Below, in pieces: positions 56,400 to 57,165 of a stretch of DNA of 64,000 bases (position 1 is its first letter; every line of letters begins with the position of its first letter). The notes under the pieces were generated by a model that had not been told where the DNA came from, searched no databases, and was given only the letters and a program-made list of their open reading frames with translations. Made by a program: the position numbers and the translations under genes. Source of the stretch: a virus; UHGV virus genome UHGV-0117053; one strand, given 5' to 3'.

Positions 56400-57165
56400 G
56401 AGCATTCTTGGTGGACCTGTAGATTGGGATATGAACCCGTTACAGGAGAATGCTCTTACCTGTTACGTGCTCCGTTTCGTGGAGCTAACGGCGGGTGATC
56501 AGGCCGCACCAGACTGGACTTATTTCAGCGTTATGCTCATGCCAGAGAATCAAACTGTGATGGTCGGTGCTGAACTCCGACACAGGGTTGTAGCAAGCCC
56601 CGCAAAGCGCGCACTACTGTAGTTGCGGCACATCAGCCTGTGCATTCACCACAATGTTGAGAACACTGGTTGTCACGCTGCAACGCAACATTTATTCGTA
56701 GATTGGGATATGACCCCGTTACGCCAGTGTTCTCAACGTTGTAGTGCCGGTTACGGTTCCGGCCAGGCCTCTTCCTCAACGGGGTGTTCTCCATACGGAC
56801 TACCGTTTATTGGTCGTTCCTGCGGTTTATGTTGTGAAGCCAGATGCTTATCTTCTGGTTGCTTCAAAGAGCTGCACTTCATCACAACGGTAAGAGCACT
56901 CGATGCATTTAAGCCAAGCCCCATAAGGGAGAATGCCCTTACCTGTTGTGTTGTGATGACCGGTGCTGATCTCCGGCTTGCGGTTATTTCAGACTCTCAC
57001 GGGCGTTTAATTACCCCGCCGAACAGCTCTTTTCCGCAATAGCTGCAATGTCTTTCGCGCATCAGCCTGCGCATTCATCACAACGGTAAGGGTACTTCGT
57101 AGGGATTCGAACCCTCTGCCAAGCTCGGCGATCTCCGACGTCGCAAAATACCCTTACCTGTTGTG
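56400..57165 (-). repeat. Array of related structured elements (AACAGGTAAG(G/A)G stem starts; GGCTGA-loop hairpins) between tciA and the tRNA genes
   Basis: At least four copies of the CCCTTACCTGTTGTG-type motif and two copies of a hairpin with compensatory base changes. Confidence 0.5.

Follow-up and report, generated by a model that had tools for sequence, protein, structure and literature searches.

What are the repeated, hairpin-forming sequences that surround the tRNA genes in the leader of the ban operon of P1-like phages? The 64,000-nucleotide (nt) stretch of virus genome UHGV-0117053 analysed here (the window) is a P1-like phage, and between its tRNA-Thr gene and tciA lie about 930 nt for which the P1 annotation records two antisense open reading frames (ORFs), plp and upl, alone. 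The repeats in and around this interval are confirmed as genuine copies of an unannotated, structure-conserved RNA hairpin family, here called E, which punctuates untranslated tRNA/small-RNA regions of many enterobacterial phages.

At least four related elements, each with a downstream pairing partner, had been placed between tciA and tRNA-Thr on the minus strand by the initial annotation. The sequence AACAGGTAAGRG does occur four times in the window, always on the minus strand (56453-56464, 56936-56947, 57151-57162 and 57590-57601; none expected by chance), and each copy is the 5' arm of a long stem (in E1, E2, E3 and E5) whose partner is a downstream CCCTTACC/CTCTTTCC-type arm. Three of the copies lie between tciA and tRNA-Thr, but the fourth is upstream of tRNA-Asn. 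Searched with a covariance model built from relatives (R1), the window yields exactly five copies, which score 30-75 bits and all lie on the minus strand. The element set was genuine, but E4, the long-range helices of the domains that follow E (D, below) and the reach of the family well beyond P1 had all been missed. The stem sequence of E4 is wholly different (CAACGTTGAGAACACTGG / CCAGTGTTCTCAACATTG) while its architecture is that of the other copies, making it a compensatory variant. The five elements are:

57494 to 57609, minus strand: E1, upstream of tRNA-Asn; R1 score 30.1 bits, fold z -5.67.
57079 to 57165, minus strand: E2, stem CACAAC-A-GGTAAGGGTA / TACCCTTACC-GTTGTG; R1 score 75.3 bits, fold z -5.07.
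56883 to 56950, minus strand: E3, stem ACAAC-A-GGTAAGGGCA / TGCTCTTACC-GTTGT; R1 score 47.8 bits.
56648 to 56746, minus strand: E4, holding inverted repeat I1 (23 nt, 91% complementary); R1 score 61.2 bits, fold z -5.31.
56388 to 56467, minus strand: E5, stem CGTAAC-A-GG-T-AAGAGCATTCT / AGAATGCTCTT-T-CC-GTTGCG with a U·U mismatch; R1 score 59.9 bits, fold z -3.32.

Each E is an imperfect stem of about 20 base pairs (bp) around a variable, exchangeable core of 35-120 nt. Going up from its base, the duplex has a lower stem of 6 bp, then a bulged A, two base pairs, a U·U mismatch and finally an upper stem of 7-10 bp. Fold z values of the E regions run from -3.3 to -5.7, with 0 of 200 shuffles folding as well, and that of the whole 938-nt interval is -6.2. 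The core of E1 holds a CUGG-UGUGAUUAA-CCAG hairpin, and no GTGAATGC hairpin follows this element; the core hairpin of E5 is common to E4 (direct repeat D7).

The pairing is conserved in relatives, as alignment and a covariance-model search have now established. Parts of the 909-nt interval have matches in 277 phage records (Escherichia, Klebsiella, Salmonella, Shigella, Citrobacter, Enterobacter, Cronobacter, Yersinia and Hafnia); among the 60 of these records that were listed, most matched stretches bear no annotated feature. Scanning IMG/VR with the 3'-arm motif gave at least 120 loci, and the E scaffold is present in well over 100 viral contigs. Once chance matches in coding DNA had been taken out, a common frame was derived: a terminator or a small hairpin, next GCACAACAGGTAAGAGCATTG, next a core of 35-120 nt with no relation between copies, then CAGTGCTCTTTCCGTTGTGGTGAATGC and the hairpin GCGCAGGCTGATGCGC. 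Across 56 distinct arm pairs, pairing is kept in 91.4% of cells, and both sides have changed in 15 of 24 pairs; compensatory cells number 69, where shuffles give 17±3 and slid partners 11-38. As the search pattern fixed the 3' lower arm, covariation of the lower stem was taken from other contexts, and there it is evident (CACAAC/GUUGUG, CUAUC/GAUAG, AAAUCU/AGUUUU and AAUAUU/AAUAUU). Lower stems upstream of another module are CUAUC-A-GG/CC-GAUAG and AAAUCUGG/CCAGUUUU, and that of the AT-rich phage Moogle is AAUAUU/AAUAUU. Even the irregularities recur, the U·U mismatch in 42 of 56 copies and the bulged A, by inspection, in most.

In E stems G·U exceeds A·C by 89 to 29, which argues that E acts as RNA on the minus strand. 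A tRNA gene lies nearby in 33 of 95 loci, and the nearest is always on the same strand as E. (In the feature table of Citrobacter phage Moogle, used here reverse-complemented, the tRNAs are on the minus strand; the sequence and Rfam put them on the plus strand, which is that of E, and the strand column seems to be inverted.) Compensation, G·U bias and co-orientation with tRNA genes together indicate selection on an RNA read from the minus strand of the window; the selection on RNA structure first proposed from a few paired substitutions is borne out across the family. No family for E exists in Rfam 15, even at E ≤ 10, and a full-text literature search with the element sequences found nothing.

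Elsewhere, R1 matches lambda, HK620, SKA5, Sf11, IME207 and the K-12 prophages e14 and Qin, with a weak match in Rac, and the scaffold is also present in T1-like and FelixO1-like phages. Its contexts are the interval from pR'/qut to the lysis genes (lambda, HK620, Qin), the PL leaders just downstream of cI (Stx2a_1447, SKA5, e14) and the tRNA clusters of T1-like and FelixO1-like phages. In lambda, E (approximately 44,782-44,889) starts 9 nt past the U-run of tR', and the D domain after it has the closing helix GUUGUGCUG/CAGCACAAC; the E-D unit (lambda approximately 44,782-44,930; positions 983-1130 of extracted locus L130) overlaps the 3' end of the annotated orf-64. Species-representative genomes with true R1 matches are Enterobacterales, plus two likely contaminant contigs. 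The latter, a 4.2-kb scaffold of Martelella alba (L248) and a contig of a Geobacteraceae metagenome-assembled genome (L249), have strong E matches (77-81 bits) and are most likely contaminating or mis-binned enterobacterial phage contigs.

Gene order in the window was established by carrying over the P1 annotation by alignment, together with ARAGORN and Rfam; sequence identity of the region to Escherichia phage JL22 is 99%, as it is to P1, over the parts in common. The features listed here are on the minus strand. It starts with dmt, the C1-controlled Pban promoters and operator, and a "dicF-like region", followed by a transfer-messenger RNA (tmRNA)-like module, E1, tRNA-Asn, tRNA-Thr, E2/D2, E3/D3, E4/D4 and E5/D5, and then by tciA (56239-55814), tciB, tciC, a third tRNA gene and ban. 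Because of this transferred gene order, the repeat elements are placed in the long (approximately 1.6 kb) untranslated, C1-controlled leader of a P1-type ban operon. The two tRNA genes among them are:

57245 to 57320, minus strand: tRNA-Asn (GTT), found by ARAGORN and by the Rfam tRNA model (74.5 bits).
57169 to 57242, minus strand: tRNA-Thr (TGT), with no encoded CCA; E2 starts 4 nt past its 3' end.

The units of the leader are readily rearranged. Missing from classic P1 (AF234173) are 196 nt that the window has at 56950-57096, covering the last part of E2, then D2, then E3 as far as its core; the deletion joins an identical 17-nt CTTACCGTTGTGATGAA that both E2 and E3 have in the 3' arm. The arrangement varies among other P1-like contigs: some have hybrid elements (E1/E3 and E4/E5), some are without E2, some have an ORF inserted between D4 and E5, and in some E5 comes directly after tRNA-Thr. 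Such recombination between repeats could mean that E has no RNA function and consists of DNA-level recombination linkers, palindromes like miniature inverted-repeat transposable elements, or parts of the antisense ORFs; P1 does annotate plp and upl here, and upl matches PHROG families. This is the least likely of the explanations considered. The G·U excess and the strict co-orientation with transcription argue for RNA, compensation keeps pairing and not sequence, and neither a transposase nor target duplications are present. The ORFs matching upl and plp (56431-57042, plus strand) run antisense to the RNA elements. In plp, 93 residues are constant and the C-terminus then changes with each repeat recombination; no family matches it, and some P1-like phages lack the region altogether. 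Both are doubtful and probably not genes.

Each of E2 to E5 precedes a D domain, the closing helix of which reuses a strand of the E stem: the GUUGYGNUG that finishes each E stem is also complementary to a downstream CANCRCAAC. The D domains of the window are:

56950 to 57084, minus strand: D2, closed by GUUGUGAUG (57084-57076) / CAUCACAAC (56958-56950) according to the fold and the family-wide statistic; contains GCGCA-GGCUGA-UGCGC (57072-57057) and CCGG-AGAUCAGCA-CCGG (56976-56960).
56831 to 56888, minus strand: D3, short, closed by GUUGUG..GAA / UUC-ACAAC according to the fold; pieces match P22-like and other phages.
56554 to 56655, minus strand: D4, closed by AUUGUGGUG (56655-56647) / CAUCACAGU (56562-56554) according to the fold; contains GCACA-GGCUGA-UGUGC (56643-56628) and UCGG-AGUUCAGCA-CCGA (56580-56564).
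56271 to 56394, minus strand: D5, STnc100/PasD-like, in the 5' untranslated region of tciA, closed by GUUGCGGUG (56394-56386) / CACCGCAAC (56279-56271).

The GGCTGA-loop hairpins of D2 and D4 are exactly the pair with paired stem substitutions from which RNA-level selection had been proposed (GCGCA-GGCTGA-TGCGC and GCACA-GGCTGA-TGTGC; none expected by chance), and the second hairpin of each domain forms another pair with a compensatory change. Across the family, a D partner (at least 8 Watson-Crick pairs of 9 nt, within 450 nt) follows 43 of 77 distinct elements, compared with a mean of 1.4 and a maximum of 5 in shuffles; it lies 50-320 nt downstream, mostly 85-130 nt. Two positions of the D helix covary (GUUGUGGUG/CACCACAAC, GUUGCGGUG/CACCGCAAC, GUUGUGAUG/CAUCACAAC and, in lambda, GUUGUGCUG/CAGCACAAC). 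Once the E 5' arm is removed, the minimum-free-energy fold closes all of D2 to D5 with the D helix. The E lower stem and the D helix are mutually exclusive in full, and covariation stands behind both.

Mutually exclusive helices with covariation behind each (5' CACAAC / GUUGUG / 3' CACAAC) could be a cis-acting switch for the downstream gene, for example tciA by way of a hairpin that sequesters its Shine-Dalgarno sequence. The 3' strand of the D5 helix does share 3 nt with a hairpin, AACCUU...GAGGUU, over that Shine-Dalgarno sequence. Such a switch is nevertheless improbable, as most E/D units precede another RNA module or a tRNA and not an ORF, no ligand- or protein-binding pocket is evident, and the relation to a Shine-Dalgarno hairpin is not seen upstream of kilR.

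D5 resembles a family of prophage small RNAs (sRNAs). It matches the Rfam model STnc100 (RF02076) at 41.9 bits (E = 4e-7) over model positions 31-147 of 206, which is below the gathering score of 47, and alignment and minimum-free-energy fold give it three STnc100 features: the closing helix, a 5' GGUGAAU plus hairpin and a 3' GGGAGGCACCC hairpin. Likeness to STnc100/PasD is seen in the closing helix UGGUG...CACCA, the GGUGAAU-plus-hairpin start and the CACCGGGAGGCACCCGG hairpin. STnc100 and PasD are Hfq-associated prophage sRNAs, and PasD of enteropathogenic Escherichia coli has been related to STnc100 in a 2026 preprint (bioRxiv 10.64898/2026.05.13.724894). PasD2 starts at a helix equivalent to that of D5, with TerB/DUF3927 (tciA/tciB-like) genes nearby (same preprint). 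In strain E2348/69, PasD2 is a D-type domain with its own promoter (its start at the D helix) and terminator, and no E is found upstream. Unlike STnc100 and PasD, D5 runs into tciA with no terminator of its own: no intrinsic terminator was found in it, the ribosome-binding site of tciA follows directly, and model positions 148-206 are unmatched. The E hairpin and the type-1 D domains (D2, D4) are outside those families. Among the neighbouring modules, Rfam at gathering and permissive thresholds gave sub-threshold STnc100, DicF and tmRNA matches only.

Similar units are found in K-12 prophages. In e14 (NC_000913 approximately 1,201,192-1,201,428, minus strand; L134 6429-6193), E, an STnc100-like domain (29.2 bits over the full length) and a DicF-like sRNA (28.5 bits) with a terminator lie over the annotated ymfH, which may not be a gene. 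Upstream of kilR in Rac (L133 9565-9230), the 5' end of the annotated sRNA KilS, which is DicF-like in sequence, falls at the 3' arm of a weak E-like stem, and a D5-type domain (GAUGCGGUG...CACCGCAUC) lies between KilS and kilR. KilS was considered as a product of processing at E, a reading rejected because its authors attribute this sRNA to its own promoter.

Tentatively, the favoured explanation is that E hairpins are endonucleolytic punctuation signals, likely for RNase III, which release tRNAs and sRNA-like domains that then refold. It starts from observed or computed features of E: structure, covariation, strand, family, competing helices and modular context. Transcription of the ban-operon leader, E elements included, would start at Pban, the promoter repressed by C1, and each E would mark a site for an endonuclease that cuts double-stranded RNA, host RNase III being the likeliest candidate. 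Cutting at E would separate tRNAs from sRNA-like D domains and take off the E 5' arm, so that the freed GUUGYGNUG could re-pair with the downstream CANCRCAAC and close D (of STnc100/PasD type), the outcome being discrete small RNAs with structured ends. Both roles offered by the initial annotation, processing sites in the operon transcript and a family of small RNAs, fit these results, the role itself being one that we infer.

The length and irregularities of the E stem (bulge, 1x1 loop) resemble those of phage RNase III sites such as the T7 R1.1-type signals. Modular context is consistent with processing at E, as stand-alone modules that elsewhere have their own promoter (PasD2, the tmRNA-like tag module) have E in front when they are internal to a longer transcript. 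Likewise, tmRNA-like units have either a promoter with a predicted start (from -10 spacing) near GAUAGUUUUCG or a preceding E whose 3' arm ends there. A weak experimental hint comes from a published RNA-seq list for an rnc mutant (Gordon 2017), where one listed position falls within the E of Qin (1641188) and another within that of Rac (1418510).

Several points weigh against RNase III punctuation. The E duplex (a stem of 15-18 bp, or 15-20 paired positions, plus bulge and 1x1 loop) is at the lower limit for RNase III, for which a duplex of about 20 bp or more, internal loop allowed, is taken as the criterion. The Qin and Rac entries have low counts (25 and 41 reads), and the list is long, noisy and without strand information; it has no entry for the e14 copy of E. 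KilS, whose 5' end lies in the E-like stem of Rac, was ascribed by its authors to its own promoter. The full-length minimum-free-energy fold favours E lower stems over D helices, and therefore refolding to D would need cleavage or kinetics. Finally, conservation of the stem sequence AAGAGCA/UGCUCUU and of cores between unrelated phages suggests something beyond a generic duplex.

Conserved cores would also fit E being itself a stable small-RNA gene, its stem a protective scaffold and its core the functional cargo, for example tRNA-like decoys or RNAs directed against host defences or competing phages. This would also explain the link of E with phage tRNA islands. Cores form recurrent families across unrelated phages; that of E3 (UCCCUUAUGGGGCUUGGCUUAAAUGCAUCGAG) recurs in the tRNA clusters of FelixO1-like phages, 90-100% identical despite different lower stems. 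By eye, a T-arm-like GGUUCGAnUCC is present in approximately 12 of 75 cores, far above chance, and the E2 core, tRNA-like in look, combines the hairpin GCGA-CGUCGGAGA-UCGC with AGGG-UUCGAAU-CCCU, which resembles a T-arm. Hyper-variable cores inside near-identical scaffolds would fit an arms race. However, ARAGORN and the Rfam tRNA model recognise the three annotated tRNAs only in the window, and no E core; neither tool sees a cloverleaf in the E2 core, which has no D-arm and no free acceptor end, and no CCA or free ends are encoded. Many cores are without obvious structure or conservation, and a stable-RNA role would need processing rather than exclude it. E as a small-RNA gene is rather unlikely.

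The 3' arm of E invites a different comparison. Rho resistance of the boxA type operates in rrn operons and CRISPR arrays, and E could be a boxA-like Nus-factor site which, with the following hairpin, makes a nut-like unit keeping polymerase Rho-resistant over untranslated tRNA/sRNA arrays. The ban leader, untranslated for more than 1.5 kb, would suit such a unit, and boxA has a precedent in untranslated arrays (PMC7665894; role of boxA, PMC2800207). The consensus 3' arm CAGUGCUCUUUCC matches the rrn boxA CACUGCUCUUUAA at 10 of the first 11 positions, E3 has GCUCUUAC in common with the boxA of lambda nutR, and the Moogle copy is UGCUCUUUAAAA. Compared with the boxA core GCUCUUUA, most family members, as well as E3 and E5, have GCUCUUU or GCUCUUA; GCUCUU is, however, missing from E1, E2, E4 and about 20% of the family, and most copies have CC where the boxA core has AA. 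A boxA must be single-stranded, and the E 3' arm pairs with a complement transcribed earlier, a pairing that is itself under selection, so the arm would not be accessible. The lambda copy lies behind Q-modified polymerase, with no need for boxA. Overall, a boxA role seems quite unlikely. An antitermination RNA of the HK022 put type was also considered; lambda, which uses N and Q, carries E.

RNase III punctuation has known counterparts. The T7 RNase III signals are likewise repeated, sequence-related imperfect hairpins between units of a phage polycistronic transcript, about two helical turns long with an internal loop or bulge, and rrn processing stalks enclose a cargo RNA that is released. 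E differs from both in its hyper-variable core, in the second covarying partner of its 3' strand, which closes the next domain, and in that its cleavage is putative. Its scaffold, unlike those signals, is common to unrelated phage families (lambda, P1, T1-like, FelixO1-like).

Other identities were rejected. REP/BIME and ERIC sequences are transcribed, imperfect intergenic palindromes of enterobacteria able to stabilise upstream RNA, but they have no sequence similarity to E, which is phage-borne, much longer, covarying and oriented with transcription, with a variable core. Like E, integron attC sites are imperfect hairpins that have AAC...GTT at the base, extrahelical bases and a terminal structure that varies. 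The RYYYAAC/GTTRRRY boxes fit GCACAAC/GTTGTGC with one mismatch but are missing in the CUAUC/GAUAG subtypes, the G·U pairs indicate RNA, and no integrase was found in the P1, lambda or HK620 contexts of E. A Y RNA (YrlA) was dismissed because its sole match (23.9 bits) spans both tRNAs, and a hammerhead because, on inspection, CUGAUG in a hairpin is followed by GAAA with no stem II between.

Immediately upstream of E1 is the tmRNA-like module, for which the P1 annotation has only the "dicF-like region" just upstream:

57612 to 57779, minus strand: tmRNA-like module without tRNA-like domain; tag ORF 57724-57692, E1 directly after.

The tag frame, GCA AAC GAT GAT CTG ATG ATG GTA GCG GCC TAA, encodes ANDDLMMVAA* and has the resume codon GCA and hydrophobic end of a tmRNA tag. 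It is preceded by UA at -5/-4; after it come a hairpin that contains the stop codon, then a pseudoknot, then a hairpin whose loop is of the GUGUGAUUAA type. The module is also present in HK620, Sf11, Moogle and more than 100 IMG/VR contigs. In 144 loci there are 32 distinct tags, almost all of 10-14 residues ending in AA or VA, with synonymous changes. The pseudoknot stems are 97.8% and 100% paired, with both-side changes in 7 of 9 pairs; compensatory cells number 51, where shuffles have 17±4 and slid controls no more than 7. Rfam tmRNA models give 24-30 bits, short of the gathering score (47). In the window and in enteric-type units, ARAGORN detected no tRNA-like domain (acceptor stem with G3·U70, T-arm, CCA), bar two Moogle-type loci where the calls are doubtful, as the acceptor piece overlaps a neighbouring tRNA gene. 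No description of a form without tRNA-like domain was found in the literature on phage-encoded or tmRNA-like RNAs; the 2025 tmRNA database paper mentions tag-less forms, and in the passages searched no mention of one without the tRNA-like domain was found. The module may be more novel than E.

Circularly permuted tmRNA genes offer a comparison. In four AT-rich phage contigs of IMG/VR (L136, L142, L160 and L173), the ARAGORN calls are genuine genes of this kind; they have a T-arm, a GGGGCUG/CAGCUCC acceptor, CCA and an intervening hairpin, and tags homologous to the enteric type (for example, ANDERFLMAA). In permuted precursors a long hairpin (acceptor stem plus intervening sequence) stands directly upstream of a D-loop-like UAGUUUCGAC, and in enteric phages E stands directly upstream of UAGUUUUCG. 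A conserved G·U occupies the third pair from the tip of E in 35 of 56 copies, which was likewise compared with permuted tmRNA. E differs in lacking a T-arm before its 5' arm, CCA and the GGGGCUG/CAGCUCC acceptor, and most E, including E2 to E5, have no tag module after them; homology with permuted tmRNA is a conjecture. Because E follows the tag module at a fixed spacing, and often precedes it too, one can speculate that E descended from, and still acts as, the acceptor-stem/intervening hairpin of a permuted tmRNA, forming with the tag module a two-piece, T-arm-less device that enters or subverts trans-translation, the orphan E/D units of P1 and lambda being derived processing cassettes. This is very improbable. 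E as the tRNA-like domain of an adjacent tmRNA-like unit was rejected, since cores around the tag are heterogeneous, T-arms are in the minority, and CCA and a GGGGCUG acceptor are absent.

Larger arrangements of these modules also occur. A lambda-like contig (L169) has the order tR' - E - tag module - E' - E - D. In L198 and L201 the E'-type element after the tag module has a second stem subtype (CCCACCAAUGAGAGCA / UGCUYUCAUUCGUGGG), its cores having a tandem GAACAGGYAGCGUAAC motif with a conserved UAACAACGGGCAUAUCGCCUUAGUAAAUCCC afterwards.

If E is a punctuation signal, annotated ORFs such as plp, upl and probably ymfH would become doubtful, and E would be an easily tested RNA motif missing from Rfam. 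The tag module raises the separate question of what use a tmRNA tag template has without a tRNA-like domain. Punctuation by E would explain how tRNAs and Hfq-type sRNAs (DicF-, STnc100- and PasD-like) are made from one transcript, and apparently "empty" leaders, such as those of the P1 ban operon, the Q-S interval of lambda and the PL leaders of e14- and Rac-type prophages, would be arrays of conserved, exchangeable RNA cassettes.

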